Source: Nitrospirae bacterium RBG_16_64_22
GTDB taxonomy: Bacteria; Nitrospirota; RBG-16-64-22
DNA length: 47,389 nucleotides
Assembly (NCBI GenBank): GCA_001803795.1
Contig: MHEK01000082.1
Location: 1-47,389, forward strand
Direction of reading: 5' to 3'
Within the stretch, counting starts at the first letter, position 1. Each line of letters begins with the position of its first letter. Below the pieces are notes generated by a model. That model made no database searches. It was not told the DNA's origin and saw only the letters and a program-made list of their open reading frames with translations. Positions 11,324-29,277 of the stretch are shown piece by piece. A program made the translations under genes and the position numbers.

Positions 11324-12034
11324 TTAGAGGTGTTGGATCTCGTCGGGGCCGGACTCCTCCCGGTCCCGCGGGACGAACTTCTCCTCAAGGTACCTGCGGG
11401 CCATATCCTTCGCCCCGAGGCCGAAGGCGAGGGCCAGGGCGAGGGCCACGGCGGAGAAAGTGATCGTGAACGTCGCCAGGATGATGTTCCGGCCGATGGC
11501 GAGCTGGTCGAGCGCCACGGCGACGCCGAAGACGACGACGATCAGCCTGACCCCCCGGGCGAGGAGGTGCGCTCCCTCGATCCCCGCGTTGACGGCGCCG
11601 AGGAGGACGATCTTCTCGAAGAAGTTGGCGACGAGGAGCGAGAGAACGACGACGACCACGGCGACGAAGAGGTTCGGGATATAGATGAATATTTCGCTCA
11701 CGATCCGGTCGGCGGCCGCGAGGTTGAGGGTCGAGAGGCTGGCCAGGAGGAATACGAACGCCGCCGTCCAGTACACGCAACGGGACAGGATCACCGCCGG
11801 CTGGGTCCTGATGCCCGTCCGGGACAGCATCGCGGAGAGGCCGACCCGCTCGCAGAAGCGGTCGAAGTCCAGGGCCCTCAGGAGTCGGCGGAGGAGCCAT
11901 GCGATCACCCACGCGGCGACGAAGCCGGCGACCAGGACGGTGAGCATCGCCAGGACGTTCGGGAGGAAGGCCTTGACCTTGAGCCAGAGCCCTTGAAACG
12001 TTTCGAGGATCGCTTCCTGCCAGAGTTCGGTCAT
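11324..12034 (-). CDS. Membrane protein with repeated conserved-TM-helix segments (mechanosensitive-channel-associated type)
   Basis: Start chosen at ATG 12034 (MTELWQEAILETFQGLW), which overlaps the upstream stop (ATGA). About 6 hydrophobic helices are arranged as repeated units. Confidence 0.55.
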   Translation of the reverse strand: MTELWQEAILETFQGLWLKVKAFLPNVLAMLTVLVAGFVAAWVIAWLLRRLLRALDFDRFCERVGLSAMLSRTGIRTQPAVILSRCVYWTAAFVFLLASLSTLNLAAADRIVSEIFIYIPNLFVAVVVVVLSLLVANFFEKIVLLGAVNAGIEGAHLLARGVRLIVVVFGVAVALDQLAIGRNIILATFTITFSAVALALALAFGLGAKDMARRYLEEKFVPRDREESGPDEIQHL

Positions 12035-14364
12035 CGGACTTCCTCCTCCTGAAGTGGGAGCGGGGCCTCGCGTTCCTGCCATCGCTCGATCAGGTACGGT
12101 TTGGCTTTCCAGAACTCGCCGCAGAGCGCCTCGATCCGTTCTTCCGCCTGGCGGGACGAGGAGAGCCACGTCTCATGGACGAGCGAGGCGACCTTGGCGA
12201 GGTAAAGCGGCGTCAACGACTTGAGCAGGATCTCCGGGTTCTCGGCCCTCCTCCGGTGGGCGGCCGCGAAGTCGAAGAGGATCCGGGCCCAGAGATCGTC
12301 CGGGAGCCGGAAGGTCTCGATCGAATCGGCGTCCAGCCCGGAGAGGGCGGCGAGGTTGTCCGGATGGACGGCCTTGCGCCAGATGGGCATGAGCGACTGC
12401 CGTCCCAGCCGGAACGCCTGCGTCATCCGTTCGAGGTTGACCTGGATCGGCTCGGCGCCCGGCTCGTACTGGAAGCCGAAGAGAGGGACGCGGTCCGGCT
12501 CCTCCCGGACGACGGCCGACCAGACGGGCGTGTATTTTTCCATGAGACCGAAGACCGACCCGACGACCTGGACGAGCATCGCGGAGAGGTCCGCGCCGGG
12601 GTCCTTCGTGTCGTGGATTTTGGCGCCGAGGAACGCCTGGCAGATCTTGAACCGTTCGGCGACCGCCGTCGTCGTCATCCAGATGTCGATCCCGTACCTC
12701 GCGACGTCGGACTGCCAGACATCCTTCTCAAGGAAGCGGGCCGCGAGCCGGCCGGAAAAGCCGAAGTCGCCGCCTATCGGCTGGCGGATCTTGAGGCCGT
12801 AGAGAGCGCGCGTGAGCGGATAGACGATAGTATTCGTGATCGTGCCGTCGTACTTGTGGCGGAGGTAGTAGGGACAGACGTAGTCGTAGTCCTGACGGAA
12901 GACGGGCGAGAGGAGGAGGTCCACCCATTCCGGCGTGATGCTCCTAAGGTCCGAGTCCACGACGAGACAGCCGCGGGCGCCCAGGCGCGCCGCGATCTCG
13001 AAGACGTTCCGGAACGCGCTCCCCTTGCCGGGAACGCCCAGGTACGGAGAAACGAACCGCGGGACCTCCGTGATCGGATGATGGACGAGGATCTGGCGGA
13101 GGTCCTCGTCCCCCGTTGACCGGACGATCTCGGGCGTGCCGTCCGTCGAGCCGCCGTCGGAGTTCACGATGACGGCGCGGGCGTCGGGGAAATATTTGGA
13201 AAGCCCCACGGTGACCGCCCGGACCACGTGGCCGATCGTCCGGGCGTTGTTGAACGACGGTATCCCCACGACGATGTCGGCCGTGCCCACGTCCTCCAGC
13301 GTTTCCGGGCGGCGCGTCGCGATGGCGAGCGCCGTCCGCGGTTCCGGCGGCTGGGGCGGCTGAAGCGTCGCCGGGGCCGCGCCCCCGCGGATCTCGTGGT
13401 AGCCCGAGATCGTCTCGATCGGCCGGCGGATCTCCTCGTGGATCTCGATCTTCTTGAGCGTCGTGAGGTTCCCGAAGTGCGAGACGTAGTGGAAGGCGTC
13501 GGGGAACGGCGGCAGGCCGCTCAAGCGGCCCGTCTCGCGGGATTTCACGAGGAGAGCCTGGAGAATTCCGAACGACATCCGGCCGAGCGCTTCGAGCTTC
13601 TGGTTCCTGTGGATCCTCTGCTCGAGATCGACCTGGGCCAGGGCGTCCAGGCCGAACCTCCGCAAGAGGTCGATGAGAAGCCCGACCTCGACGCCATACC
13701 CCGTCGCGAAGGGGACCTGCTCGAGGGCGGCCCGCCGACCCGCGTATTCCCCGGACAGGGGCTGGACGAAGGCCGAAAGCTCGGGAAAAAGGAGGTTGAA
13801 GTACGGGCGGGCCAGGATCTCCGTCACGCGGCCGCCTCCGACGGGATGAAGGACTTCTCCGACGCGGATGGGGCGGAGGTAGAACCCCTTGACGTACATG
13901 ATCTCCGGCCGCCGGAGGAGCGGCCCCACGAGGCCGTAGATGAAACGCGGGTGGATGTTCCGGATGTCCGTGTCCACCCAGACGATGATGTCCCCCTTGA
14001 GGGCGGCGAGGCTCTTCCAGAGGGCTTCGCCCTTTCCGCGGAGTGATCCCGCCTCGGGGAGGACGTCCTTGTGGTTGACGACCGGAACGCCGCGCTCGCG
14101 GGCGATCTCCACCGTCCGGTCGGTCGAGGATGAGTCGATGACGACGATCTCGTCCAGGAGGGGCGCCTCGTTCATGAGCGCGCCTTTCAGAACGTCGATG
14201 ACGTTCCCGATCGTTTCTTCTTCGTTGAGCGCGGGAAGGCCGAGGCTGATCGTGACGCCCTGCTTCTCCTTGAGCGAGATGAGGGTGCCAATGTTCTCGA
14301 AGTCGTGGGAGTGGAACGTGTTCCGTGCGAACCACTCGTTGACGAGGTATTTTGTTTCGGTCAC
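12031..14364 (-). CDS. Bifunctional-type fusion: glucosyl-3-phosphoglycerate synthase (GpgS, GT81) plus a second retaining GT-A domain resembling mannosyl-/glucosylglycerate synthase
   Basis: N-terminal part: ISLGLPALNEEETIG, VIDSSSTDRT, GKGEALWKSL, VWVDTDI, GGGRVTEILARP, QPLSGEYAGRR, GYGVEVGLLIDL (GpgS pattern). C-terminal ~430 aa: IVVGIPSFNNARTIG, NSDGGSTDGT, GKGSAFRN, VVDSDLRSITPEW, QPIGGDFGF (MGS/Ggs-like layout). GTG start with GGAGG 6 nt upstream. Confidence 0.8.
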   Translation of the reverse strand: MTETKYLVNEWFARNTFHSHDFENIGTLISLKEKQGVTISLGLPALNEEETIGNVIDVLKGALMNEAPLLDEIVVIDSSSTDRTVEIARERGVPVVNHKDVLPEAGSLRGKGEALWKSLAALKGDIIVWVDTDIRNIHPRFIYGLVGPLLRRPEIMYVKGFYLRPIRVGEVLHPVGGGRVTEILARPYFNLLFPELSAFVQPLSGEYAGRRAALEQVPFATGYGVEVGLLIDLLRRFGLDALAQVDLEQRIHRNQKLEALGRMSFGILQALLVKSRETGRLSGLPPFPDAFHYVSHFGNLTTLKKIEIHEEIRRPIETISGYHEIRGGAAPATLQPPQPPEPRTALAIATRRPETLEDVGTADIVVGIPSFNNARTIGHVVRAVTVGLSKYFPDARAVIVNSDGGSTDGTPEIVRSTGDEDLRQILVHHPITEVPRFVSPYLGVPGKGSAFRNVFEIAARLGARGCLVVDSDLRSITPEWVDLLLSPVFRQDYDYVCPYYLRHKYDGTITNTIVYPLTRALYGLKIRQPIGGDFGFSGRLAARFLEKDVWQSDVARYGIDIWMTTTAVAERFKICQAFLGAKIHDTKDPGADLSAMLVQVVGSVFGLMEKYTPVWSAVVREEPDRVPLFGFQYEPGAEPIQVNLERMTQAFRLGRQSLMPIWRKAVHPDNLAALSGLDADSIETFRLPDDLWARILFDFAAAHRRRAENPEILLKSLTPLYLAKVASLVHETWLSSSRQAEERIEALCGEFWKAKPYLIERWQEREAPLPLQEEEVR

Positions 14365-17165: not shown

Positions 17166-18182
17166 CTACTTCTTCTTGCCTTCGAGCGCCTGGATCCTCT
17201 GTTCGAGCGCGCCCAGCTTCTTGAGCGCCGCGTTCACCTTCACGAAGTTGTAGTAGCTAACGTTCGCGACCGGAAGGTCGGGGTTCGATCCCCAGACGAT
17301 CCAGGAATCGTCGTAGTTCCGGACCTTCGTGTACCCCATGTCCCTCAGGACGGCGTACGTGAGTGTCGAGCGCGTCCCGGTCTGGCAGAGGGCGACGATA
17401 TCCTTCTTCGGGTCCAAGCCCTTGTAAAGGTCCTTGAGGCCCTTTTCGTCCTTCAGGGCCATTCCGTTGCGGTCCTTCACCTGACCCGCGCCGAGCTTCT
17501 TGGCGGCGTCCGGATCCACCCAGGCCTGCTCGTACGGGATGTTGACGCTTCCCGCAATGTGCCCGCCCCGGACCGCCCGGATGTCGTCACCGGAGAACTC
17601 CTTGGTTGTCCGGGCGTCGAGGAGCACGACGTCCTTGTTCTTCAGGTTCTTCTTTACGAAGTCGGTCGTGGCCAGGCGGTCGGCCCTAACCTTGGCAGTG
17701 AACTTCGCGGCCGGGAGCTTCTTGATGTCGGCCGAGAGCGGGTGCTTGGCGGCAACCCAGTCGTCGATCCCGCCCATGTAGACCTTGGCCTTCTCGGCCC
17801 CGAGGTATTCGAGGATCCAGAAGGGGACCGTGGCGCTCGTGTCTCCCTTGATGCTGTAGACGATGATATCGGCTTCCCGCTTGATCCCGGCGTCGCCCAG
17901 GATCTTTTCGAGCTTGGCGACGGGAAGGATCCGGGCGTCGACGTCGCGAAGGACCTTCGCGGCGCCCTTGCCGCCCAGGTTGATCGCGCCGGGGATATGC
18001 CCCTTCTTGTAGCCGTCCTCGGCACGGGCGTCCAGGAGGATCGTGCCCGCCTTGTCCTTGTTCTTGAGGACGTAGTCCGTGTTGACGATGACCGAGCCGG
18101 CATGAGCCGTCCCAACCAGTCCAACGGCCATGAGACCCACGAGCAAAGTGCCGAGCAATCCCTTTCCTTTTCGCTTGCGCAT
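17166..18182 (-). CDS. Secreted tandem-rhodanese thiosulfate/3-MP sulfurtransferase-like protein
   Basis: Signal peptide (LLVGLMAVGLVGTAHA), two rhodanese domains (LLDARAEDGYKKGHIPGAINL; LLDARTTKEFSG), active-site loop CQTGTRS, coiled-coil tail. Confidence 0.85.
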   Translation of the reverse strand: MRKRKGKGLLGTLLVGLMAVGLVGTAHAGSVIVNTDYVLKNKDKAGTILLDARAEDGYKKGHIPGAINLGGKGAAKVLRDVDARILPVAKLEKILGDAGIKREADIIVYSIKGDTSATVPFWILEYLGAEKAKVYMGGIDDWVAAKHPLSADIKKLPAAKFTAKVRADRLATTDFVKKNLKNKDVVLLDARTTKEFSGDDIRAVRGGHIAGSVNIPYEQAWVDPDAAKKLGAGQVKDRNGMALKDEKGLKDLYKGLDPKKDIVALCQTGTRSTLTYAVLRDMGYTKVRNYDDSWIVWGSNPDLPVANVSYYNFVKVNAALKKLGALEQRIQALEGKKK

Positions 18183-18407
18183 AGCGGTGCCCTCCCTTGT
18201 TATGGTTCTGTCTGTATTTCCGCCCGTCCGCCGATCCTTGTCACGGATTCGGAGGCCGGGGGCGCCCTCTCAGGAGATGGTTACGGCTTGCTGTCCAATG
18301 TCCATTTGGCTTGGAATAACTGCCATCGAGGAAGAAAATGATTTCGCGGTGTTCCCTCCGAGACTTTGTCCAGGGTGCCAACTTTTACTATGTACCGGGT
18401 CCGAAGG

Positions 18408-18429
18408 AAATGATGCATTTGCATCATTT
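18408..18429. promoter_or_regulatory. 22-bp palindromic operator candidate (AAATGATGCA-tt-TGCATCATTT)
   Basis: Perfect 10-2-10 inverted repeat in the divergent rhodanese/GT2 promoter region. A 21/22 match is present at 28963-28984. Confidence 0.6.
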
Positions 18430-18489
18430 TGCGATTGGGCTAACCAGTGAAAATCACGGGACTTTTTTGTTGGGGAATTTGCCGGTAGA

Positions 18490-19560
18490 ATGACGGTGTC
18501 GGATTGGCCGGGAAATGGACTGAAACCACGGGTCATTGAGCATGGCGGGAGCATGGCGGCGAGCTTCGTTTCTGTAGTTATCCCCAATCGAAACGGCGAG
18601 GCGACGATCGGCAAGTGCCTCGAAGCGGTCTTCGCGTCGCGATACGAGCCGTTCGAGGTGATCGTCGTGGACGACGGCTCGGAGGACGGGTCTGTCGAGA
18701 TCATCAAGCGCTTCCCGTGCAGGCTGATCCGATTGGAAAGACACTCCGGTGCGGCCAGGGCCAGGAACGTCGGCGCGCAAGAGGCGAAGGGTGATATCCT
18801 CTTCTTCACCGACGCCGACTGCCTCCTGCAAGAAGACACGCTTTCAACCGCCGCCCGGGCGTCCGCCGAGGCAGGGCCGGACACGATCGTGGGGGGGACC
18901 TACACTCGAATTCCTCACGACCGGCGGTTCTTCAGCCTGTTCCAGTCCGTCTTCATCAACTATTCCGAGACGAAGAGGCCGGAGAATCCCGACTATATCG
19001 CGACCCATGCGATGATGATCGACGCCGGGCTCTTCCGCCGGCAGGGCGGCTTCGACGAGAGATTCCTTCCGATCCTGGAGGACGTTGAGTTCAGCCACCG
19101 GCTGAGGAAGGCGGGCGTCCGGCTCGTCATGAGGCCCGAGGTTCTGGTTCAGCACATCTTCAACTTCTCCATGCTGAGGTCCCTCCGGAACGCCCTGAGA
19201 AAATCGACGTACTGGACGGCCTATTCCCTTCTCCGCAAGGACGTGTTCGCCGATTCCGGTACAGCTTCGACGGCCCTCAAGACGAACGTGGCCGCCTTTT
19301 TCCTCAGTGCCTTCATCGCGGGGGCCGCCCTCGCCACGGGAGAGGCGGGCCTCTTGTGGCTGGTGCTTGCGCCCCTCGTGGCGAATCTCGCGGCCAGCGG
19401 CGGACTGCTCCGGGCGTTCGGCCGGGCCGGAGGGTGGGTTTTCGGTCTTCTGGCGGGGGGCTACTACGCGGGCGTCTATCCCCTGGCCGTGGGTCTCGGG
19501 GCTCTTGCGGGAACGATCAAGTACCTGGGCCTCCTCGCGCGACCGGGGGAGGTCCGGTGA
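18490..19560 (+). CDS. Family 2 glycosyltransferase with C-terminal transmembrane region
   Basis: VSVVIPNRNGEATIGKCLEAV, VIVVDDGSEDGS, ARARNVGAQEAKGDILFFTDADC, then hydrophobic C-terminal helices. The start is uncertain (ATG 18490 or 18553). Confidence 0.8.
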   Translation: MTVSDWPGNGLKPRVIEHGGSMAASFVSVVIPNRNGEATIGKCLEAVFASRYEPFEVIVVDDGSEDGSVEIIKRFPCRLIRLERHSGAARARNVGAQEAKGDILFFTDADCLLQEDTLSTAARASAEAGPDTIVGGTYTRIPHDRRFFSLFQSVFINYSETKRPENPDYIATHAMMIDAGLFRRQGGFDERFLPILEDVEFSHRLRKAGVRLVMRPEVLVQHIFNFSMLRSLRNALRKSTYWTAYSLLRKDVFADSGTASTALKTNVAAFFLSAFIAGAALATGEAGLLWLVLAPLVANLAASGGLLRAFGRAGGWVFGLLAGGYYAGVYPLAVGLGALAGTIKYLGLLARPGEVR

Positions 19561-20672
19561 TGCACTCGCCGTTCCGGCACGCCGGGTCCATCTTCCGGAA
19601 GGGAAGGCCCATCCATCTCACCTTCTTCGTGACGCGGAAGTGCAACCTGACATGTCCCTTCTGCTTCTATTTGAGGAGCAAGGAAGAAGAGGCCCGAGGG
19701 GCGTCGGAGGAGTTGTCTCTGGACGAGATCCGGCGGGTCTCCGCCTCCCTGGGGAGAATGCTCTGGATCGCGTTCTCGGGAGGGGAGCCGTTCCTGAGGG
19801 ACGATCTGGCGGAGATAGGCCGGGTCTTCTACGAGCAGAACAAACCCGCGGTAATGCTGTTTCCGACCAACGGGTCTCTCCCTGAACTGATCGAGGAGAA
19901 GACCGAGAGGATCCTCAGGGAGTGCCCGAACAGCGTCGTCGTCGTGAAGCTCTCCCTGGACGGGATCGGCGAGGCGCACGACGCCCTCCGCTTGGGCCGT
20001 GACAGCTTCTCGAAGACGATGGAGACCTGTAGCCGGCTCGGGAGGCTGATCGCCCGGTATCCGAACTTCGATCTGGGGATCAACACCGTCTTTTCCGCCG
20101 CGAACGAGGACCGGATGGACGAGATCATCGAGTTCGCCCGAGGCCTTGAACACGTCAAGACGCACACGATCTCGATGGTCCGCGGAGACCTCGCCGACGA
20201 GAGCTTCCTCCGGGCGGACGTTCGGAAGTACGAGCGCGCCGCCTCCCGGCTCGCCGAGAACATGAGGCAGGGAAGGTCTCCGCACTACCGGTTTCGGGGA
20301 GGGCGATTGAAGGCCGCGCAGGACATCCTCCAGCGGCGGCTGATCCACCGGACGGCCGTGGAGAAACGGAGGGTCGTCCCTTGCTGGGCTGGGCGGCTGA
20401 ACGTCGTCCTGAGCGAGACGGGCGAGGTGTTCCCGTGCGAGATCCTGACCGAGAGCCTCGGGAACGTGAGGGACAACGGATACGACGTGAGGCGGGTCCT
20501 TCGCTCAGAGATGGCGGGGAACGCGGTCCGGGCCATCCGGGAGGGCCGGTGCCACTGCACGCACGAATGCAACTTCATCATGAACATTCTCTTCAACGCG
20601 CGCCTGTACCCGGCCCTGTTCGGGGAGTATCTCCGGCTGGGCGGCGGAGAACGGCCCGCCCTTCGTCCATAA
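19560..20672 (+). CDS. Radical SAM protein with SPASM-type C-terminal Cys cluster
   Basis: Start ATG 19560 overlaps the GT2 stop by 1 nt. CNLTCPFC (CxxxCxxC), GGEPFL, and a C-terminal CWAGR...PCE...RCHCTHEC. Confidence 0.8.
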   Translation: MHSPFRHAGSIFRKGRPIHLTFFVTRKCNLTCPFCFYLRSKEEEARGASEELSLDEIRRVSASLGRMLWIAFSGGEPFLRDDLAEIGRVFYEQNKPAVMLFPTNGSLPELIEEKTERILRECPNSVVVVKLSLDGIGEAHDALRLGRDSFSKTMETCSRLGRLIARYPNFDLGINTVFSAANEDRMDEIIEFARGLEHVKTHTISMVRGDLADESFLRADVRKYERAASRLAENMRQGRSPHYRFRGGRLKAAQDILQRRLIHRTAVEKRRVVPCWAGRLNVVLSETGEVFPCEILTESLGNVRDNGYDVRRVLRSEMAGNAVRAIREGRCHCTHECNFIMNILFNARLYPALFGEYLRLGGGERPALRP

Positions 20673-22079
20673 CCAAAGAAGGCTCTTCATTCCCTTGAGC
20701 GCCGCCCGGACGTCGTTCAGGCCGCGGAGAGCGAGGAGGCGCCTCAGGATGAACGACGGGCGGCCGTAAAAGCGCTTGAAGGCGGTCCGGCGGAGCGCGG
20801 AGATTTCATCCCGGGTCATCGTGTGGGGAACGAACGCCGCGCCCTGGTAGGTATAGTCTCTCATGTCCGCCGAGAGCGTCCCGTACTTTGCGTAGTGATC
20901 GTGGAGGTGCGTTCCAGGGAACGGAGTGAGGGCGTGAAAGTTCGCCAGGTGGGGATCAAGCTCCAGGGCGAACTCGATCGTCTTCAAGCCGTCTTTGTAC
21001 GTCTCGCCGGGGATCCCGAAGATGAACGGCGTGCTGACCTTGAGGCCGGCCTCCTTGGCGGCCCGCACGGCGCGCCGCGTCTGTTCGAGCGTGATCCCCT
21101 TCCGGAGGGCGTTCAGGTTCTTCTGGACGCCGCTCTCCGCGCCGAGGAGGATCGCCCAACATCCGGCTTCCTTGAAGGCGCGCATCAGCGGGCCGTCCAC
21201 CTGACTCACGCAGGCCGAGGCGAACCAGGTGATGTCGAGCCGCCGGGCCTTGATTTCCCTGGCGAGATCCATCGCCCTGCCGTAGTCGGCCGCCAGCGTG
21301 TCGTCGAGGAACTTGATCTCCCGGTATCCCTGGCGGACGCAAAGCTCGATCTCCTCCAGGACGTTGCCGATGCTCCGGAAACGGACGCCGCGCGCGCCGC
21401 TCTTGCGCTCCCTGTCGATCTGGAAGCAGAAGATGCACCTCTTGTCGCAGCCGCGCGAGGTGATGAGGACGGCGACCGGCTTTCTCCGGTACGTCGCGGG
21501 CGGGGGGAGGTAATGGGCGGTGTCGCCCAGGAGCTCTCGGGCGGGGAAGGGGACGGCGTCGAGGTCTTCGATCAGCGGCCGGGGAGGGTTCTTGACGATC
21601 TCCCCGCTCTTCCTGCAGACGGTTCCCGGAACGCCGTGGAGGTCTTGGCCGCGTTCGAGCCGTTCCAGGATTTCCGGGACGGTCCGCTCGCCTTCTCCCG
21701 TCACGACGGCGTCGATGCGGCCGCCGTCCTCCCCCAGGCACCGCTCCTGAACCGCGATGGGGTAGGGGCCGCCGACGCAGGTGAAGATGCTCCGGTCGAG
21801 GGCCTTGATATCCTTCGCCGTCTCGCGCGCCTTGCCCCATCCGAATGCCGTGGAATAGATTCCGGCGAAATCGGGCCGGAAGCCGGCGACGGCGTGCAGG
21901 ATCTCGGCGCGGGCCATGAACGCGCCGTTGTAGAACCGGACTTCGTGGCCGGCTGAGAGGAGGCTTGCGCCGACGTAGAGGATCCCGAGGGGCTGCCAGT
22001 AGTTGATCTGGGACCCAGCCGTGCGCGGCGAGAAGATCTCGTCAGGCGTCCATGAGGGGACGATCAGGGCGCATTTCAT
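20505..22079 (-). CDS. B12-binding-domain radical SAM enzyme
   Basis: N-terminal cobalamin-binding style (MKCALIVPSW...PLGILYVGASLLSAGHEV), then ITSRGCDKRCIFCFQ (CxxxCxxC) and a TIM-barrel core. The 3-prime end overlaps the convergent SPASM gene by 168 nt. Confidence 0.85.
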   Translation of the reverse strand: MKCALIVPSWTPDEIFSPRTAGSQINYWQPLGILYVGASLLSAGHEVRFYNGAFMARAEILHAVAGFRPDFAGIYSTAFGWGKARETAKDIKALDRSIFTCVGGPYPIAVQERCLGEDGGRIDAVVTGEGERTVPEILERLERGQDLHGVPGTVCRKSGEIVKNPPRPLIEDLDAVPFPARELLGDTAHYLPPPATYRRKPVAVLITSRGCDKRCIFCFQIDRERKSGARGVRFRSIGNVLEEIELCVRQGYREIKFLDDTLAADYGRAMDLAREIKARRLDITWFASACVSQVDGPLMRAFKEAGCWAILLGAESGVQKNLNALRKGITLEQTRRAVRAAKEAGLKVSTPFIFGIPGETYKDGLKTIEFALELDPHLANFHALTPFPGTHLHDHYAKYGTLSADMRDYTYQGAAFVPHTMTRDEISALRRTAFKRFYGRPSFILRRLLALRGLNDVRAALKGMKSLLWLWTKGGPFSAAQPEILPEQGRVQARVEENVHDEVAFVRAVAPALPDGPDRVPRHL

Positions 22080-22249
22080 CCTAAAAACCGCAGATCACTC
22101 ACCGCAGAGGACCCCGATCCGATCGGGGGAGGAATATCTTTTCGGGCGGTTTTGATGCTCACCTGCCTGGTGAGATCGATGTGTCTTCCAATCCCTGGAA
22201 CTCCTTTGCGTTCTCTGCGTGCTCCGCGGTTCAACTGCTTTTTCTAGGT

Positions 22250-23677
22250 TCATGCGTTCAATTCCGCCAGATCGGTGTCTTCCCCGTCCATCTCGAAATC
22301 GGCGGGGGTCCGCGCGATGATCCGCTGTGCAGTGTCGATGCCGGCCGCGATTACATGGTCCATGTTCTGGTACCTGAAAGCGCCGGTCCGTCCCGCGACG
22401 TGAAGGTTCTCGAAGCGGCTCAGGTAGTCGAGGATCGTCCGATAGCTGTTCTCGTACCCGACCTCGAAGACCGGGTAGGCGTGGGGGACCCTCACGACGG
22501 CGGCGTCTTCCACTTCGTCCGGCTTGACGAAGCCGAGGCGCGCCAGGTGGGAAACCGTGTTTCCGACGAGCCGTTCGTCGGTTGTCCGCCAGGCGTCGTC
22601 GCCCTGGAAGCAGAAGTGCTCCGTGACGAGAAGCGTCTTTCCCTCGGGGGCCATCTTCCCGCTCCAGTTCGTGGGCTCGTGGATCCGTCCGAAAGGGACC
22701 GACCGTTCGGGAATGTAGATCCACGTCTGGTCCGTGACGCGCGGCCGGCCGATCATGACCGCGACGATGACGAGGTCTCGGTACCTGAGCCGCGCGGCGG
22801 CGCGGGCGACCTCCTCCGGGGGCCGGGGTCGGAGCATGTCGACCAGGGACGTGAGGGGAAGGGTGGAGACGAATTCCCCCCCCGCGAAATCGCCGGTGGA
22901 GCCGGGGCCGTCCACGGCCGCCCTTTCCAGCCTGAGGCCGTCGTGGCGCAGTTCGCAGACGCGGGCGTCGGTGAGGACCCGGCCGGTCCGCTCGATCCCT
23001 TCCCGAAGGTTCTCCGCGATCCGGCCGATGCCGCGCGCCGGATAGAGGAAACGGTCCGCAAGCGTAGCCATCCCGCCGTTGGCCGAGGGGAAGAGGGCCT
23101 CCTTGATCGCCCGGCGGAGGGACAGCCCCTGGATCCGCTGGTCGATCCACTCCATGCAGATCCGCTCGCAGTCGATTCCCCAGACCTTCTCGCTGTACTC
23201 CTTGAAGTAGATGTTGAACAGCGTCCGCCCAAAGCGGTCCACGACCCAGTCCTCGAGCGAGACGATCGGCGTCTCCTTGAACCCGCGGGCGATCCGCCGT
23301 CCGGCGTAATCCAGAAGGCTCCGGATCGTGGTCGGGACCCCGAGGCCGAACAGGGCGTTGAGCGGCCTCAGCGGGTAGTCGAAGTAGCGGTTATTGAGGA
23401 GGATCTTGCTCGTTCGCGGGACCGTGACGAGTTCGGCGCCCATCAGGCCGCCCAAGAAGGCCGCGACCTTCTCGTCTTTCGTGAAGAACCTGTGTCCGCC
23501 GAGGTCGAAACGGAACCCTCCTCGGACGATCGTCCTGGCCAGGCCGCCGACTTCGGGACCCCGCTCGAGGACTTGGACGCTCCGCCCGGCCCTCGAGAGG
23601 ACGAGACCGGCGGTCAGTCCGGTCAGGCCCCCGCCGAGGATGACGATCCGATCGCTAGCGTCCTTCGGGCGGTCCAA
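22250..23677 (-). CDS. FAD-dependent oxidoreductase, UDP-galactopyranose-mutase/amine-oxidase-like
   Basis: Dinucleotide fold IVILGGGLTGLTAGLVL...VLERGPEVGGLART, then FFTKD, FNIYFKEYSEKVWG. Confidence 0.75.
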   Translation of the reverse strand: MDRPKDASDRIVILGGGLTGLTAGLVLSRAGRSVQVLERGPEVGGLARTIVRGGFRFDLGGHRFFTKDEKVAAFLGGLMGAELVTVPRTSKILLNNRYFDYPLRPLNALFGLGVPTTIRSLLDYAGRRIARGFKETPIVSLEDWVVDRFGRTLFNIYFKEYSEKVWGIDCERICMEWIDQRIQGLSLRRAIKEALFPSANGGMATLADRFLYPARGIGRIAENLREGIERTGRVLTDARVCELRHDGLRLERAAVDGPGSTGDFAGGEFVSTLPLTSLVDMLRPRPPEEVARAAARLRYRDLVIVAVMIGRPRVTDQTWIYIPERSVPFGRIHEPTNWSGKMAPEGKTLLVTEHFCFQGDDAWRTTDERLVGNTVSHLARLGFVKPDEVEDAAVVRVPHAYPVFEVGYENSYRTILDYLSRFENLHVAGRTGAFRYQNMDHVIAAGIDTAQRIIARTPADFEMDGEDTDLAELNA

Positions 23678-23714
23678 TTCCTTCTCCCAGCCGCGCCCCG
23701 CCGCCTGCGCCGCG

Positions 23715-24182
23715 CTATTTCGCCAACAGCACGGGGACCGTCGCGCGGTTGGCCACTTCCTTCGTGACGTCGCCCATGAAGAGCTTGTCGAGCGTGCTTC
23801 GCGTGTTCCCGATGATGATCACGTCCACGCCTTCTTCCCCGGCCGTCTCGATGATCGTTTCGGCCACGTGCCCGGGCTTGCTGACAGCCTTGATCCGGGT
23901 CATGCCGCTCTTTTCGAGGAAAGCCTTGTGCGAATCGAGGATCGTCTTCGAGCCGCTTTCCAGATCGTCCTCGACATTCGTTCCCTGCAAGTCCTCCTGG
24001 ACGGTCGAGAGCTCGGCGTCGCTGATCCGGTCATGGGCCAGGGTCTTCCCGCCCAATTGCCGCACGTGCAGGAGGATCACCGACTCGAACGGCGTGTCCG
24101 AGAACAATCGGGCGCACGCCGCGACGGACGCGCGGGCGCCCTTTGAATCGTCCACCGGGACAAGAATCTTCTTGACGCTCAT
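23715..24182 (-). CDS. Universal stress protein (UspA family)
   Basis: Start ATG 24182 (MSVKKILVPVDDS) with GGAGG upstream. C-terminal GVDVIIIGNTRSTLDKLFMGDVTKEVANRATVPVLL. Confidence 0.85.
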   Translation of the reverse strand: MSVKKILVPVDDSKGARASVAACARLFSDTPFESVILLHVRQLGGKTLAHDRISDAELSTVQEDLQGTNVEDDLESGSKTILDSHKAFLEKSGMTRIKAVSKPGHVAETIIETAGEEGVDVIIIGNTRSTLDKLFMGDVTKEVANRATVPVLLAK

Positions 24183-24216
24183 GGGAGGCCTCCGTTTTGT
24201 TGGATCGCGCGGGTCT

Positions 24217-24546
24217 CTATCCCCCGCCTGGCGAGACGGTGTATGAGGGGACACCCGGGGCCGCGGCGGGGGCGGAAGCCGCGGCCGGGGCCCCGTAGCC
24301 GCCCGAAGGGGCTGACGGCGCCCCGTATCCTCCGGATGGCGCCGCCGGCGCGCCGTAACCGCCTGATGGCGCTCCGTATCCCCCCGACGGGGCTCCATAA
24401 CCTCCGGAAGGAGCTCCATACCCGCCCGCGACGGCGCCTCCTCCGGCGCCTCCCTTCGCCCCCGTGTGGGATGATACGGCGTATCCGATCAGGAAGCTCA
24501 ACCATGCGACAGCAACGAGAAACACGGTCCAAAGAGTCGTTTTCAC
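24217..24546 (-). CDS. Membrane-anchored Gly/Tyr-rich repeat protein (GGYGAPS x6)
   Basis: One N-terminal TM helix, then six GGYGAP(S/A) units. The units use different synonymous codons, so the peptide rather than the DNA appears conserved. Confidence 0.6.
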   Translation of the reverse strand: MKTTLWTVFLVAVAWLSFLIGYAVSSHTGAKGGAGGGAVAGGYGAPSGGYGAPSGGYGAPSGGYGAPAAPSGGYGAPSAPSGGYGAPAAASAPAAAPGVPSYTVSPGGG

Positions 24547-24583
24547 GATCGGTCCCCTGGGTGAAAAGTTGAGAGCGGCATCC

Positions 24584-24844
24584 CTAAGCCCGTTCGGCTT
24601 TCTTGACCGTCCACTTGTATTTCCCGCCGTTCGTCGTCTTCTCCGCTATCTCGTCCCCCGTCGTGTCGCACATCGACGCGATCGACTCGCCCGAGGACGG
24701 GTTGTCGAAGATGATCTCCAGCGTGTCTCCGGTCCGCATCTTCTCCAGGGCCTTCTTCGTGTAGAGCTGGGGGTGCGGGCAGACGTATCCCGTCACGTCC
24801 AGCAGGAAAGCGCCTTCACCCTTTTTCTCGAACTTCATTGCCAT
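24584..24844 (-). CDS. TusA/SirA/YedF-family sulfur carrier
   Basis: 86 aa. LDVTGYVCPHPQL (CPxP active-site motif). Lies immediately downstream of YeeE/YedE. Confidence 0.85.
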   Translation of the reverse strand: MAMKFEKKGEGAFLLDVTGYVCPHPQLYTKKALEKMRTGDTLEIIFDNPSSGESIASMCDTTGDEIAEKTTNGGKYKWTVKKAERA

Positions 24845-24895
24845 GACTCACCCTCCCTTTTTCTGGATGTCTTTCTGTTTTGTTGGTGACTGGCT

Positions 24896-24919
24896 CTCAG
24901 CGGTCAGCCGTCAGCCGAG
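24896..24919 (+). repeat. Short GGTCAGC-type octamer array
   Basis: ctcagcggtcagccgtcagccgag lies between yeeE-like and tusA-like. It is the same unit type as 35271-35296. Confidence 0.6.
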
Positions 24920-24937
24920 ATGCCGAACACCTCCCTA

Positions 24938-26371
24938 TTATAGGTCACACGCGGCCATTTCCTTGGCCATCTTTCTATCCGTGTACCAGTTGAAGAACTT
25001 CACGCCGAGAAAAGCCCCGCCGATCATCCCGATCCCGAAGAGCCACCCCGAAACGTCGCCCTGGGAGACGCGGACGAAGAAGGCGCCGATGTTGCACCCG
25101 AGACCGAGCCGGGAGCCGATCCCCATGAGCGCCCCGCCGATCACCGCCCACATCGCGAGCTCGAGGGTGGGCGCCTTCCACTTGAACTCGTTGTGGGAAA
25201 GGGCCATGACGGCGGCGCCGAAAATCAGGGCGATCGACATCCAGTCCGCGGGGTTGATCAGCGGGTTCGGGATGCCGTTGTTGAGGCCGAAGTATATGTT
25301 GTCCATGTTGTCCGCGCCGAGCTTGTTGAACACCCACCCCACCCACTGCGCCTCCTGCGTCGTCACGTACCAGTAGCCGGGGTCGAAGACGGTGCCCTTC
25401 TCGGAGAGGCCGAACGTGATCCCCATCCTCTGCATCAGCTCGCCGAAGTTCTGGACGCCGAACTTGACCTGAAGCCCCTTCATCACGAACATGTGGAGGC
25501 CCGCCGCGATTCCCAGGATCAGTCCGGCGATCGCCGTCCGCTTGGAGGCGGCGATCATGCCCCAGTAACCGGCGAGCTCGACGCCGAGACCGGAGCTGGG
25601 CAGACCTTCCTTCTTCCGCTTGCCCAGGAAGGACTTCCGCACCCAGATGAGATAGACCCCGAGGAGGATCAACGCCGCGGGCAGGATGATGCCCACGAGA
25701 ACGTTCCCCACGTAGGCCGCGAGGAACGGGTTCTTGAACTTCACGATTTCGGCGTACGACGTGGTCGGGAGGTTCCACACGTGGCCGGCCAGGAACTGGT
25801 CCACCCACCCGTCGCCCGCGTTGATCGAGGCGGGGAGCCCCTTGGCGACGGCCGAGTCGTGCCAGGACTGCGGGGCCAGCTTGTTGGCCCAGCCGCCGAT
25901 GTCCGCGAAGATCGCCTGCGTCACGCTGATCGAAAGGATCACGAGGAAGGCCACGCCGTTCCCCTCTCCGGCCTTGTAGAGCGAGCCGGAGGCGCACCCT
26001 CCAGTCAGGACCATCCCGACGCCGAAGATGAGCCCGGCGATGACGGCGTGAACGCCGTAGGGCGCGGAGTGGAACGTGCTCATCCCGACGGCCGTGACGA
26101 AGGCTGAGACGAGGCCGAAGAGGGCCATCGCGATCATGATCCCGACGGCCATCCGGGGGACGCCGACGGCGAAGAGGTCCCGGAACGCCGAGGAGAAGCA
26201 GAACCGACCGTACTGGAGGCTCATGCCGTAGATGAAGCCGAACCACAAGTAAGCCGTGAGGTAGATGTAGTACTCGTTCATCGCGTACGTGACGATGCTG
26301 ACGACGGACAGGAACACCACGATGGCTAGAATCCAGAGCTGATTTTTCCGGTTTGTTTCATCCATTGCCAT
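24938..26371 (-). CDS. YeeE/YedE-family (thio)sulfate/selenium-type transporter, 477 aa long form
   Basis: Polytopic membrane protein with the conserved Cys loops (QYGRFCFSSAF, LTGGCASGSLYKAGEGN, LGLGCNIGAFF). Confidence 0.85.
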   Translation of the reverse strand: MAMDETNRKNQLWILAIVVFLSVVSIVTYAMNEYYIYLTAYLWFGFIYGMSLQYGRFCFSSAFRDLFAVGVPRMAVGIMIAMALFGLVSAFVTAVGMSTFHSAPYGVHAVIAGLIFGVGMVLTGGCASGSLYKAGEGNGVAFLVILSISVTQAIFADIGGWANKLAPQSWHDSAVAKGLPASINAGDGWVDQFLAGHVWNLPTTSYAEIVKFKNPFLAAYVGNVLVGIILPAALILLGVYLIWVRKSFLGKRKKEGLPSSGLGVELAGYWGMIAASKRTAIAGLILGIAAGLHMFVMKGLQVKFGVQNFGELMQRMGITFGLSEKGTVFDPGYWYVTTQEAQWVGWVFNKLGADNMDNIYFGLNNGIPNPLINPADWMSIALIFGAAVMALSHNEFKWKAPTLELAMWAVIGGALMGIGSRLGLGCNIGAFFVRVSQGDVSGWLFGIGMIGGAFLGVKFFNWYTDRKMAKEMAACDL

Positions 26372-28094
26372 CCCCCCCCAAGTGTGCCGTTTTCTGTGTC
26401 GGTGAGTATATCCTGATGAGACTTCTGTAGGCGAACACTTCGTCCGATACGGCGAATTCCCCGGCCAGGCGATACCCTTCGATTCGACGGCGGATCGAGG
26501 CGAGCGATGCCTCGTCGAAATTTGACGCGATGACCGCCAGCGCGGGCCGGCCTCCGGGAGAATCGGGCCGCCCGGCGTAATAGCGCGGGTTCTCGTATTC
26601 CCAGGTGAACCTCAGCGGGGACGTGGAGGCGTCTCCCGGCGAGGCGGAAGGCTCACCCGGGCGATAGACGATGTTCTTCTCGGTAAAGAGATCGAGGAGC
26701 GGAACGGAGACGGCCGGATTGATGGAGACGCGCGCTTGGGGAAGCGTGATGACTTCGACTCCGTCCGCGTCCATCGCGTCGAGGTGCCTGCCGGCGTCCC
26801 GCAGGTTGGCGGCGCTCATGTTTTGGAGGAACGGGAGGTAGCCGAAGAGGGCGATGACGATCGAAACAGCCGCGATTGACGCGACGGCGAACCTCTTTGC
26901 CGCCGTGTCCTTGATCCGGCTGAGCCCGTAAGAGGCCATGAGCGCGAGCATCGGGAGGACGGGGATGATGTATCTTGCCCGCCTGATCCCCAAGGCGACC
27001 ACCAGGAGGACGGGCCAGGCGGCGATCGCGAACTTCAGGTCCTTCCTTAGGACCGCCGCGGCTGCGCCGGCCAGCGCGGACAGCGTGATGAAGGGGTGAA
27101 TCTGAAAGAAGAACGTGGACGCGAAGCTTTCCGTCCATCGGCCCAGGCCGGGCGCTTGAAAGGTCCGCAGGAGCCCGATCTGTTCCGAGACGATGTCGAA
27201 CTTGAACGCCGCGAGGCCGCCGACGATGAAGAGCGAGACGGCCAGGATGGACAACCCCCTCCGGAGGACGGTCTTCGGCCCGTTCGGCCCCTTCGAAACC
27301 CGCGCCAGGACGATGACGGGGAGGACGGTAAGCATCAGCCAGGCCGAGTACTTGGACAAGACGGCCAGGGCGACGGCTGTGCCCGACAAGACCAGGGGGC
27401 CCGTTCCGCCACGGCCGAGGGTCTTGACGACCGAGAAGACGGCGAGCGTCAGGAAGAACATGGTCGGGACGTCCGCGAGCATCAGCGGTACTTGCGTGAG
27501 AAGGTAGGGCATCCCGAGAAGGAGCGCGCCGGCGAAGAGCCCGGTCGTCCTGTCCCAAAGTTCTCTTCCGATTAGATACGTGAGAAAAACCGTGCCCGAG
27601 AAAAGGAGCGTCGTGAACACCTGGATATAGATCCTCGTCTCGCCGAAAAGGCTGAAGATCAGGCCGTAGAGAAGGGGGACCAGGGGCAGGTCGGTCCAGG
27701 CCTTGATCTCCGCGCCCCATTCCGCGAGGAAATAGCCGATGCCGTAGACCTCCAGATGCTTGGCCTGGGTGAAGTAACGCGCGGCGTCGGCGATCGCCTC
27801 GGGCTCGCTCCAGAAGAGCGCCCCCGCCGCGAACGATCCCAGGAAAAGGGCGGCGGGAAGGAAGCGGCCGGGAATCGGGAGTCTCGTGAAAACGTATGCG
27901 GCGGCAAGTCCGATGCCGAGGAGGGGGAGCACCTTGAATACGGCTATGCCGGCGAACACCCATTGCCAGCTCGTCAGCCTGTTATCGTCCAGCGCGCGAA
28001 GAACGAAAAGGGTCAGAAAGACGGCGAGCGAAAGAAGGGAAACTAGAACGAGGAGATGGTTGTTGTCTTCAGTCTTCGGCCTAATCACGCTCAC
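26358..28094 (-). CDS. GT-C fold membrane glycosyltransferase (ArnT/PMT-like)
   Basis: 578 aa, about 11 TM helices plus a C-terminal soluble domain. The layout and loop motifs (DAARYF..., DLPLVPLLYG) resemble 4-amino-arabinose/dolichyl-phosphate-mannose transferases. Overlaps the yeeE-like start by 14 nt. Confidence 0.65.
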   Translation of the reverse strand: MSVIRPKTEDNNHLLVLVSLLSLAVFLTLFVLRALDDNRLTSWQWVFAGIAVFKVLPLLGIGLAAAYVFTRLPIPGRFLPAALFLGSFAAGALFWSEPEAIADAARYFTQAKHLEVYGIGYFLAEWGAEIKAWTDLPLVPLLYGLIFSLFGETRIYIQVFTTLLFSGTVFLTYLIGRELWDRTTGLFAGALLLGMPYLLTQVPLMLADVPTMFFLTLAVFSVVKTLGRGGTGPLVLSGTAVALAVLSKYSAWLMLTVLPVIVLARVSKGPNGPKTVLRRGLSILAVSLFIVGGLAAFKFDIVSEQIGLLRTFQAPGLGRWTESFASTFFFQIHPFITLSALAGAAAAVLRKDLKFAIAAWPVLLVVALGIRRARYIIPVLPMLALMASYGLSRIKDTAAKRFAVASIAAVSIVIALFGYLPFLQNMSAANLRDAGRHLDAMDADGVEVITLPQARVSINPAVSVPLLDLFTEKNIVYRPGEPSASPGDASTSPLRFTWEYENPRYYAGRPDSPGGRPALAVIASNFDEASLASIRRRIEGYRLAGEFAVSDEVFAYRSLIRIYSPTQKTAHLGGDGNG

Positions 28095-28159
28095 GCTTCA
28101 TCCTCATGCCGTCGGGCTCATGCCGTCGGGCGGCCTCTCTTCGTGCCTGCGCTGGCACT

Positions 28160-28330
28160 TCACCAAGTCGTGACCTTGTCGTGCGAGAAGATCTCGTCCA
28201 CCAGGTCTTCGTAGGAAACGCTCTTCTTGGAAAGGTCAATGACCTTCACCTGATGGCTCTTGGACTGCACGCTGATGATCCGGTCCGCCGGCTTCCCTGC
28301 CGCTGAAACCAGGATGTGGAGAATCTTCAT
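28160..28330 (-). CDS. Unlisted 56-aa ORF, miniature DsrH/TusB-like
   Basis: My own translation: MKILHILVSAAGKPADRIISVQSKSHQVKVIDLSKKSVSYEDLVDEIFSHDKVTTW. The N-terminus (ILH) and C-terminus (Y..LVD.....DKV..W) resemble the ends of DsrH/TusB. It falls below the size cutoff of the track. The track ORF 28106-28306(+) is antisense to it. Confidence 0.45.
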   Translation of the reverse strand: MKILHILVSAAGKPADRIISVQSKSHQVKVIDLSKKSVSYEDLVDEIFSHDKVTTW

Positions 28331-28368
28331 CGGTCATCCTCCGCGATCGGCCCGCCCGAATTCGGCCC

Positions 28369-28671
28369 TCACAAAATGACGATACGATCCGCTTCCTTGT
28401 TCATCACGGCGTTGTTGAACTGACTGCCGCACTTGATCGTCTCAGGAATCGCTTCGATGTTGACGTGGTACTCCAGGGCGCTGTAATCGCACACGCTCAT
28501 CGAGACGCCCGGAAGCTTGCTCAGCCCGGTGTACGAAGGGTCCTCGACGAGGCGCGTCCCTTCGTCCATCGCGAAGAGAATCACCTCGTGCCCCTTGGAC
28601 ACGGCGGCATTCGTGAGTCCCACGACGTCCTGGAGATGCTTGTCGGTGTTGACGAGGATCCCGAGTTTCAT
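28369..28671 (-). CDS. DsrE/DsrF-like small sulfur-relay family protein
   Basis: 100 aa. MKLGILVNT...GHEVILFAMDEG...KCGSQF...ADRIVIL matches the DsrE/F-like Rossmann layout. AAGGAG lies 7 nt upstream. Confidence 0.6.
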   Translation of the reverse strand: MKLGILVNTDKHLQDVVGLTNAAVSKGHEVILFAMDEGTRLVEDPSYTGLSKLPGVSMSVCDYSALEYHVNIEAIPETIKCGSQFNNAVMNKEADRIVIL

Positions 28672-28962
28672 GAAGTTGCTCCTTATTTGCGCATGTGTCC
28701 AGCACGCACGGTCCGCTGGACAGGTCCATGGCCTCAGCCTTGGGGGATAGGCGCCCTTGTGGAACCGACAGACCTGGCCCCTTGAGCCCTGGCCTGTCGC
28801 TCAAGGCAGAACAGGCGGATCCGCTTCTCGATCGGGGGGGATCTTCAGGGATCTGAATCTTGCCGCCGGCGCCGCCTGGATGTCGGCGCACAAGGGTCGT
28901 GCCCCCGGAACCGGCAAACGCAGTTTAGCCCTCGAACTATTACAGAGGACGGCCAAGGAAGA

Positions 28963-28984
28963 AAATAATGCAAATGCATCATTT
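28963..28984. promoter_or_regulatory. Second copy of the 22-bp palindromic operator (AAATAATGCA-aa-TGCATCATTT)
   Basis: 21/22 identical to the reverse strand of the site at 18408-18429. It heads a 325-nt non-coding gap upstream of the dsrE/F-like gene. Confidence 0.55.
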
Positions 28985-28995
28985 TACCCGACGTC

Positions 28996-29268: not shown

Positions 29269-29277
29269 TTTTCCTCC

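Follow-up and report, generated by a model that had tools for sequence, protein, structure and literature searches.

Twin palindromes in a sulfur-relay, glycosyltransferase and radical-SAM gene cluster as predicted binding sites of a neighbouring PAS-LuxR regulator

Two near-identical palindromes lie 10.6 kb apart in a stretch of 47,389 bp (the window, by which the whole of the DNA analysed is meant), and the question they raise is which protein reads them, and with what effect on the genes around them. Both were scored with a PWM built from 58 independent protein-anchored sites.

18408-18429: site 1, AAATGATGCATTTGCATCATTT, composed as AAATGATGCA-TT-TGCATCATTT; a perfect 10-2-10 inverted repeat; PWM score 44.6
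28963-28984: site 2, AAATAATGCAAATGCATCATTT, composed as AAATAATGCA-AA-TGCATCATTT; 9/10 pairs; PWM score 43.3

The initial annotation had described the first of these as a perfect 10-2-10 inverted repeat in a divergent rhodanese/GT2 promoter region, and this is borne out by the sequence and by the gene map. Its second point, that 28963-28984 matches site 1 at 21 of 22 positions, holds for the reverse-complement reading (1/22 mismatch, as against 3/22 on the same strand). The two sites are the sole matches at ≤3 mismatches in the 47,389 bp, and 100 dinucleotide shuffles of the window gave 0 matches at that threshold. In a PWM scan of the window, the next best position after the two sites scored 0.6, the maximum in the shuffles being 8.9. 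Window DNA averages ~64% G+C; recurrence of an AT-rich 22-mer in such DNA is therefore not a matter of chance, and the improbability claimed for it at the outset stands.

The genes concerned were mapped by ORF, codon-position-GC and Pfam/NCBIfam analysis, and are given here in order along the window.

17166-18182, minus strand: tandem-rhodanese sulfurtransferase (Pfam Rhodanese, 116.7 bits); predicted target of the left promoter of site 1
18490-19560, plus strand: GT2 glycosyltransferase; predicted target of the right promoter of site 1
~19550-20672, plus strand: radical-SAM/SPASM protein; with GT2, the predicted target operon 18490-20672
20505-22079, minus strand: B12-binding radical SAM protein, HpnJ-like with a score far under the cutoff
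22250-23677, minus strand: FAD amine-oxidase-like protein
23715-24419, minus strand: Usp
24584-24844, minus strand: TusA
24938-26371, minus strand: YeeE/YedE-type sulfur transporter
26358-28094, minus strand: PMT_2/ArnT-like glycosyltransferase
28369-28671, minus strand: 100-aa DsrE-like protein
20505-28671, minus strand: predicted target operon of site 2, from the 100-aa DsrE-like gene through the B12-binding radical SAM gene
28996-29268, minus strand: 90-aa DsrE/F/H-like protein, always directly downstream of the regulator gene
29278-29928, minus strand: PAS-LuxR regulator, 216 aa
30156-31103: thrB, outside the cluster, past the regulator
31367-32209: hpnD, outside the cluster (NCBIfam 280.2 bits against a cutoff of 278.6 bits, a narrow pass)

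This map places site 1 in a divergent promoter region. Site 2 heads the long operon that runs on the minus strand from 28671 to 20505, and is found 11 nt past the stop codon of the 90-aa gene. The regulator gene had been thought to be encoded between the sites; it falls just outside the pair, 294 nt beyond site 2, with the 90-aa gene in between. The two genes are probably co-transcribed. As the 90-aa window protein has no Pfam or NCBIfam match, its DsrE/F/H-like label is a reading of the sequence only; a weak precomputed Pfam DsrE match concerns orthologues of the 100-aa gene and has no bearing on the 90-aa one. Gene order after the motif is the same in loci L001, L002, L111, L119 and others. 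Identification of cluster genes as the hopanoid genes HpnI, HpnJ, HpnH or HpnE was rejected, their NCBIfam scores being far under the cutoffs; the neighbour hpnD alone passes. No Rfam family or tRNA was found in the window. A small ORF across site 1 (18338-18493) was likewise discarded, since conservation there is symmetric, confined to the palindrome and without codon periodicity.

The protein encoded beside site 2 has a C-terminal GerE domain (PF00196; residues 155-210, 57.9 bits against the Pfam cutoff of 23.5 bits) and an N-terminal PAS domain (PAS_9, 30.4 bits with a cutoff of 27; PAS, 29.1 bits with a cutoff of 22.6). Its Pfam matches include neither a receiver domain (PF00072) nor an autoinducer-binding domain (PF03472). 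This is the ~200-aa, one-component architecture of PAS plus LuxR HTH that is seen in PimM and VqmA. The recognition helix reads TVRNHIQH, and T186, R188, N189 and H190 are invariant in the PAS-LuxR family. In the PAS domain, C47, C62 and C66 are invariant and H114 is ≥90% conserved, down to homologues of ~30% identity; this signature suggests a sensor of metal, of a cluster or of cysteine chemistry. Given the sulfur-relay targets, sulfane sulfur or redox state would be an attractive, if speculative, guess at the signal.

Sequence relatives in the PDB are limited to the HTH domain (LiaR, VraR, NarL, GerE and DosR, dimeric binders of palindromes without exception); LiaR, VraR, NarL and DosR are the closest (E 1e-9 to 1e-6), with 41% identity to the DNA-binding domains of LiaR and VraR. 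The AF2 model of the regulator has a mean pLDDT of 74.7, with about 85-90 for the PAS and HTH domains and a disordered linker (120-152), and its best structural matches are VqmA (including the DNA complex 6ide), EL222 and 3clo. An exact-protein look-up of the window regulator gave no match. PAS-LuxR homologues number >1,000, and those with a taxon name are mostly from Gammaproteobacteria MAGs.

Seen from the regulator gene, the palindrome is a constant companion. The contigs of three homologues (92%, 61% and 58% identity) carry the same cluster and the palindrome at orthologous positions. Metagenome contigs were scanned with the protein as anchor, which gave 80 loci, and the motif was called in these at ≤3 mismatches over 18 specified bases. 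An orthologue test set was drawn up of 45 loci with a regulator of ≥43% identity and ≥1 kb of downstream sequence; 43 of them have the motif no further than 1 kb downstream of that gene, and the other two, L127 and L172, lack it. In the 43 loci it is situated 290-970 nt past the end of the regulator gene, just after the 90-aa gene; the chance expectation (uniform) is about 3e-4 per kb.

There are two conserved positions, one between the rhodanese and GT2 genes and one between the DsrE-like 90-aa gene and the DsrE-like 100-aa gene. An identical or near-identical palindrome is kept at these two intergenic positions in dozens of orthologous clusters even though the flanks are unalignable (regulators 43-92% identical), and contig JAUXMZ010000012 has its two sites 11.1 kb apart. 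CP070733.1 is an example of a complete MAG with the cluster. An extra site is present 48-171 nt upstream of the regulator gene in 7/47 orthologue loci, the window not being among them. Homologues with <43% identity share the recognition helix, and a full site nearby is mostly absent (2/13); in their loci, the core TGATGCA-NN-TGCATCA occurs 22 times against 0.56 expected.

The consensus of the motif is rAAATGATGyA-ww-TrCATCATTTy, with symmetric information and two nearly free central bases. Its core consists of two inverted TGATGCA heptamers with a 2-bp spacer (7-2-7), to which AT-rich extensions are added. The relation of the motif to promoters was examined for 78 sites in GC-rich loci, a −10-like hexamer being defined as T-A-n-n-n-T with at least 4/6 matches. 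Such hexamers are most frequent at a distance of 18-22 nt from the 20-mer's edge (33/156 flanks, vs ~0.8 per position elsewhere). The implied palindrome centre is at about −40.5 to −43.5, so that the proximal half covers a poor −35 region; where a −35 hexamer would stand, the DNA matches TTGACA poorly. Three such hexamers were noted in the window.

18385-18390, minus strand: −10-like TAGTAA, 18 nt from the site 1 core on the rhodanese side; low confidence individually
18449-18454, plus strand: weak −10-like GAAAAT, 20 nt from the site 1 core on the GT2 side; low confidence
28937-28942, minus strand: −10-like TAATAG, 21 nt from the site 2 20-mer core, the predicted operon promoter; low confidence individually

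All three are imperfect, and a scan for sigma-70 consensus promoters called none at either site. At the distance of GAAAAT, other rhodanese/GT2 loci have TACACTATACTT or CAATAT. The predicted leaders are long, at roughly 200-260 nt.

The common flanks that the initial annotation had pointed out are real; they are, however, shifted by about 4 nt relative to the palindrome (ccgaagga|AATGATG at site 1, ccaagga-agaa|AATAATG at site 2). Read toward the downstream gene, the common flank is a TyCTTCsG stretch 10 nt from the −10-like hexamer at both sites, so that its spacing is held relative to the hexamer and not relative to the palindrome.

The exact 10-mer GGAAGAAAAT has three copies in the window (18330, 28957 and 29995). 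The copy at site 2 forms the flank on the promoter side, kept as TyCTTCC in close relatives; the 10-mer was considered as an extra half-site, a −35 element or SD+ATG. The 'weaker partial copy' formerly proposed at 29995-30008 (GGAAGAAAATATGC) is present as sequence, yet it amounts to the flank and a few half-site bases, namely GGAAGAAAAT plus ATGC. Its PWM score is outside the top 15 window matches, and in the orthologous locus L001, which is 92% identical and comes from Hainich groundwater, indels and substitutions disrupt it, the neighbouring DNA there being conserved. A third site at this position was ruled out on both counts, the below-noise score and the lack of conservation.

The reverse approach, starting from the motif, used an exact scan with AATGATGCANNTGCATCATT of one genome per species (185,579 species), which gave ≥120 loci. 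The composition-corrected expectation is about 0.1-0.3 matches per 100 Gb at 60-65% G+C and ~3-4 in AT-rich DNA. The matches listed were split into 78 loci in genomes with ≥42% G+C and 42 in genomes with <42% G+C, and the latter served as an internal control. Nearly all of these 42 AT-rich loci are inside long ORFs or are A/T-flanked and hairpin-like; the ORF matches come down to a few orthologous coding positions in SAR11 and marine Bacteroidetes, with the peptide NDAxASL.

Among the GC-rich matches listed, the motif lies between divergent rhodanese and GT2 genes at 14-15 loci, and between the 90-aa and 100-aa genes, with PAS-LuxR upstream, at 11-12; a further 20 of the 78 have a GerE-HTH gene no more than 3 kb away. 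When all ORFs in that 3-kb range around the motif were clustered all against all, GerE came out as the largest neighbour family among the matches listed (31 loci), and no other regulator family recurred in that set. By tblastn with the window regulator, a neighbour was found at 25/78 GC-rich vs 1/42 AT-rich matches listed (Fisher p = 5e-5). About 33 GC-rich motif loci among the matches listed have no LuxR gene within the 8 kb examined; the binder there would presumably be encoded elsewhere. Genomes with numerous sites include JBGOZF, JACPTZ and CBDVBZ.

The motif-adjacent GerE proteins are of three architectures, all with a recognition helix of the form T[V/A]RNHx[Q/S/K]. The first consists of PAS-LuxR homologues (28-40% identity) and occurs in Thermoanaerobaculia, Acidobacteriota, Nitrospiraceae, Anaerolineales and Chloroflexota. 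The second comprises ~330-400-aa proteins with a C-terminal GerE domain and an N-terminal region (~270 aa) without an assigned domain; its members come from Variovorax, Acidovorax, Diaphorobacter, Gallionella, Nitrosomonadales and Rhodocyclaceae. The third, that of receiver-GerE response regulators (e.g. at L061 and L076), is seen in Bacteroidota and Ignavibacteria, with a motif on either side of the gene. In other lineages, the genes downstream of the motif encode DUF1631, isocitrate/isopropylmalate dehydrogenase, VWA, GcvT, thiolase, PEP-CTERM and secreted proteins; with targets so diverse, the box would belong to an HTH specificity class, and regulons would differ by lineage.

The motif, its conservation, its co-occurrence with the regulator gene and its constant spacing from −10-like elements are matters of observation, to which the identity of the binder has to be fitted. 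Palindromes 1 and 2 are very probably binding sites of the neighbouring PAS-LuxR regulator; the assignment is made because of the conserved positions, the 43/45 orthologue loci, the enrichment of GerE neighbours and the fixed −10 distance. These four comparative lines support the original proposal of a shared operator for a local dimeric LuxR/GerE protein as far as a shared predicted site goes. The sense of repression that the word 'operator' carries does not hold up as well, since the geometry favours activation. Binding by PAS-LuxR, activation over repression and the nature of the signal are all inferred from comparison of sequences, and what follows should be read accordingly. A PAS-LuxR dimer would place one GerE helix-turn-helix on each TGATGCA half-site. 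Site 1 would serve the divergent rhodanese and GT2/radical-SAM promoters, and site 2 the promoter of the minus-strand operon (DsrE-like, ArnT-like GT, YeeE, TusA, Usp, FAD oxidase, B12-radical SAM), so that with two sites and three promoters the entire ~11.5-kb cluster would come under one regulator. A signal picked up by the PAS domain, with its three invariant cysteines and conserved histidine, would act as the trigger.

With sites ~41-44 bp upstream of the predicted start and over a poor −35, class-II-type activation would be most likely. The lux box, an 18-20-bp palindrome centred near −42.5, replaces the −35 element in this way and supports class-II-type activation by a LuxR-HTH dimer. 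Activation is accordingly the mode to which we incline, by reason of a class-II-like geometry shared with the lux box and with Streptomyces PAS-LuxR sites at −35. The same protein could instead sit at the same sites as a repressor, occluding the −35 region until the signal releases it; this is rather unlikely, though it deserves to be taken seriously. Overlap with −35 suits promoter occlusion as well as it suits class-II activation, the sulfur-responsive SoxR, sHdrR and SqrR are repressors (PMC11582611 in part), and the second site upstream of the regulator gene in 7/47 orthologue loci could mean negative autoregulation. Against this, the poor TTGACA match is typical of activator-dependent promoters, a centre at about −41 to −44 is lux-box or class-II geometry, and the Streptomyces PAS-LuxR proteins with sites at −35 are activators (PMC9774167, PMC9394381).

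Readings in which the PAS-LuxR protein plays no part fare worse. It is improbable that an unlinked factor, such as a PhaR/AniA-like or other TGCA-repeat global regulator, binds the palindrome and that the LuxR gene is a mere neighbour: this leaves unexplained both the co-occurrence with PAS-LuxR in 43/45 loci and the three adjacent LuxR architectures, and GerE is the sole recurring regulator family near the motif among the matches listed. Sinorhizobium PhaR sites such as AAATGCTGCATTGCATCATTG (consensus YGCRNYGCR) are strikingly similar (PMC12542648), and many LuxR-less motif matches come from alpha- and beta-proteobacteria, where PhaR is common. Yet PhaR sites are TGC-N3-GCA, of odd length, while all sites here are TGC-N4-GCA, a 1-bp difference in the phasing of half-sites, and no phasin, PhaR or PHB genes are found beside the 10 alpha-/beta-proteobacterial matches tested. 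With a central spacing one base shorter, another protein family and no PHB context here, the PhaR/AniA site is a look-alike. Boxes for sigma-54, Fur/Zur, FNR/CRP, NsrR/IscR, LexA and RirA were ruled out by spacing or sequence.

An RNA hairpin, with site 2 as an intrinsic terminator or an attenuator that follows the regulator gene and the 90-aa gene, or a DNA cruciform is more improbable still. Site 2 does sit 11 nt past a stop codon, with UUUUCUUCC following in the mRNA sense, and the region folds at −10 to −14 kcal/mol (z-score −2.2); but this fold is modest, the stem is A+U-rich, neither site was called as an intrinsic terminator, and at site 1 the two genes start in opposite directions, so that no transcript ends there. 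The sequence itself is conserved, beyond pairing: one-sided C->T/G->A changes at positions 8 and 13 often give C·A mismatches on the mRNA strand, e.g. AATGATGCAAATACATCATT in >10 loci. The distance to the upstream stop codon also varies, from 11 to ~190 nt, whereas the element is in register with the downstream −10. As for chance recurrence or a dispersed mobile repeat (MITE/REP-like) with no regulatory role, the ≥120 genome loci with the 20-mer, 42 of them AT-rich and mostly inside ORFs, might be cited in favour, and the probability is nonetheless close to nil. The AT-rich matches go back to a few coincidences in coding sequence (NDAxASL) that related species have inherited, <0.5 matches per 100 Gb are expected in genomes with GC ≥ 0.6, and copies are intergenic at fixed orthologous positions. 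Copies within one genome have unrelated flanks, and the motif is therefore not a MITE or REP element. The initial annotation had named a dispersed repeat family at many unrelated loci as one outcome that would refute it; many loci and phyla are indeed involved, but what recurs is an isolated 20-22-bp site with unrelated flanks, typically beside LuxR-type genes.

The preferred reading, binding by a PAS-LuxR dimer, has counterparts among known systems. NarL sites consist of two inverted heptamers with a 2-bp gap, bound by an HTH dimer, and the window motif has the same layout. NarL, LiaR, VraR and DosR, the closest solved HTH domains, all bind palindromes as dimers; unlike the window protein, which has PAS and no receiver, they are phosphorylation-controlled response regulators, and their half-sites differ. 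The TraR box, ATGTGCAGATCTGCACAT, shares an ATG..TGCA flavour with the window motif. In contrast to the AHL-dependent proteins LuxR, TraR and LasR, the window regulator is without an autoinducer domain, and both spacing and sequence of the sites differ.

VqmA (the Vibrio DPO quorum-sensing receptor) and EL222 (LOV-HTH) are the best full-length matches of the AF2 model (6ide, 6ugl, 7dwm, 8a5r and 3p7n), and bind DNA as dimers via a GerE-type HTH, 6ide being a VqmA-DNA complex. At 15-18% identity they are missed by sequence search, and TM-scores are 0.3-0.5 because the domain arrangement of the model is uncertain. Their ligands, DPO and flavin, have no indicated counterpart here, and the DNA sites differ.

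Streptomyces PAS-LuxR proteins (PimM, PteF, AmphRIV and NysRIV) bind the 16-bp palindrome CTVGGGAWWTCCCBAG in the −35 region (PMC9774167). The likeness extends to the ~200-aa PAS plus LuxR HTH protein, the 7-WW-7 palindrome, its −35 position, and targets in the regulator's own cluster. The half-sites differ, however (CTVGGGA there, TGATGCA here), as do the hosts, which are actinomycetes there and Gram-negative uncultured bacteria of sulfur-oxidiser type here. Targets are polyene PKS genes in the one case and sulfur-relay, glycosyltransferase and radical-SAM genes in the other, and the PAS domain here has the invariant Cys3(+His) signature. Membership of the PimM regulon was rejected: AATGATGyAwwTrCATCATT does not match the PimM operator, and layout and −35 position alone are shared.

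A broader reading is possible, if doubtful as a whole: the palindrome could be the box of one GerE specificity class (T[V/A]RNHxQ) across phyla, read through interchangeable sensors (the Cys3-His PAS, a receiver, or the ~270-aa domain without assignment). In the present cluster, a Cys3-His PAS that senses sulfane sulfur, metal or Fe-S/redox state would then activate a pathway in which a persulfide relay (rhodanese, TusA, YeeE and two DsrE-like proteins) is coupled to glycosyltransferases and two radical-SAM enzymes. If true, uncultured sulfur-oxidising bacteria could be making a glycoconjugate or lipid that contains sulfur by way of this pathway.

In kind, a dimer of LuxR type that binds a palindrome across the −35 region would be textbook, the gene system itself being apparently without earlier characterisation; no prior description of the motif, the regulator subfamily or the gene cluster was found in the literature. 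The predicted site offers a testable code, AATGATGyA-ww-TrCATCATT with its centre near −42, for a regulator family of >1,000 homologues without a characterised member. It would also delimit a conserved cluster of 11 genes (17166-28671, with the regulator in addition) and mark its members as co-regulated; in this cluster, sulfur-carrier proteins are tied to glycosyl and radical-SAM chemistry. The motif may be used for regulon prediction in these uncultured organisms, and in heterologous reporters to find the signal of the Cys-rich PAS domain. The cluster is found in Acidiferrobacterales, Burkholderiales-type and 'Nitrospirae' MAGs, from groundwater, sediments and vents.

The two palindromic sites (18408-18429 and 28963-28984) lie within a conserved gene cluster (window 17166-29928) that ends with the gene of the PAS-LuxR regulator, the predicted binder of both. 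Its members include a tandem rhodanese, a GT2 glycosyltransferase and a radical-SAM/SPASM protein, together with Usp, TusA, a YeeE/YedE transporter, an ArnT/PMT_2-like glycosyltransferase and two small DsrE/F/H-like proteins. The cluster also has an FAD amine-oxidase-like protein (NF005548) and a B12-radical SAM protein that is HpnJ-like, scoring 184 bits against a cutoff of 577 bits; most cluster genes fall below every curated family cutoff. The gene order is common to Acidiferrobacterales, Betaproteobacteria/Burkholderiales and 'Nitrospirae' MAGs, and a literature search returned no paper describing the cluster. The radical-SAM/SPASM (+) and B12-radical-SAM (−) genes are convergent, and their 3' ends overlap by ~170 nt (20505-20672). 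Gene calls on L001 and L002, two contigs that carry PAS-LuxR homologues and the same cluster, show this overlap as well.

In the PAS domain of the regulator (29278-29928), Cys47, Cys62 and Cys66 are invariant among homologues down to ~30% identity, and His114 is kept in at least 90% of them over the same range. Together, the four residues could make up a sensor site for a metal, Fe-S or persulfide.

The predicted −10 elements, if real, would give mRNA leaders of ~200 nt for the rhodanese gene and ~260 nt for the gene of the 100-aa DsrE-like protein. Neither region matches an Rfam family. In other genomes, the motif lies between 57 and 346 nt from the start codon.

Predicted leader regions (predicted −10 to gene start)
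18182-18385, − strand gene, rhodanese
28671-28937, − strand gene, 100-aa protein

A shorter repeat, the 10-mer GGAAGAAAAT, occurs in three exact copies in the window, each followed after 0-4 nt by an ATG (3/3). One copy is the flank of the second palindrome, and the copy at 29995 is not kept in the closest relative. With up to one mismatch allowed, the window contains 7 matches versus 2.4 expected.

Exact copies of GGAAGAAAAT
18330-18339, + strand
28957-28966, + strand, flank of the second palindrome
29995-30004, + strand

Raw counts of the 20-mer across genomes are inflated by copies in many AT-rich marine genomes, which lie within conserved ORFs at orthologous positions and encode N-D-A-x-A-S-L or its reverse-strand reading. 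These copies, in Pelagibacteraceae (L036, L062, L079, L081, L086, L088, L089, L124) and marine Bacteroidetes (L011, L030, L059, L069, L106), are coding coincidences.

In the Planctomycetota MAG JACPTZ, the 20-mer sits inside a palindrome of ~38 bp, catttccatAATGATGCAnnTGCATCATTrtggaaatg, which suggests that recognition in that lineage involves a longer element or a second one.

Extended palindromes in JACPTZ
L016, 631-670
L057, 6448-6487
L110, 7177-7216

Two loci of a distant PAS-LuxR homologue (~41% identity), L195 (58-6710) and L197 (4037-10690), hold six core-like sites (TGATGCA-NN-TGCATCA, at most 2 mismatches) in ~6.6 kb; such a grouping is a possible multi-site regulon block.

The exact 20-mer is also present in cultured isolates. 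The most tractable for experimental work on the box is Variovorax paradoxus (NBRC 15149 chromosome; L039, position 4962), in which a 345-aa GerE-type regulator, its N-terminal domain without family assignment, starts 26 nt downstream. The closest GerE gene in Diaphorobacter caeni (L087) ends ~1.4 kb from the motif, and a search of the 8-kb Duganella radicis locus (L027) turned up none.

Elsewhere in the window, a 777-aa protein (12031-14364) matches glucosyl-3-phosphoglycerate synthase over its N-terminal ~310 aa (417 bits) and holds a second GT-like region. An hpnD-type presqualene diphosphate synthase gene (31367-32209), which narrowly passes its cutoff (280.2 versus 278.6 bits), adjoins thrB.
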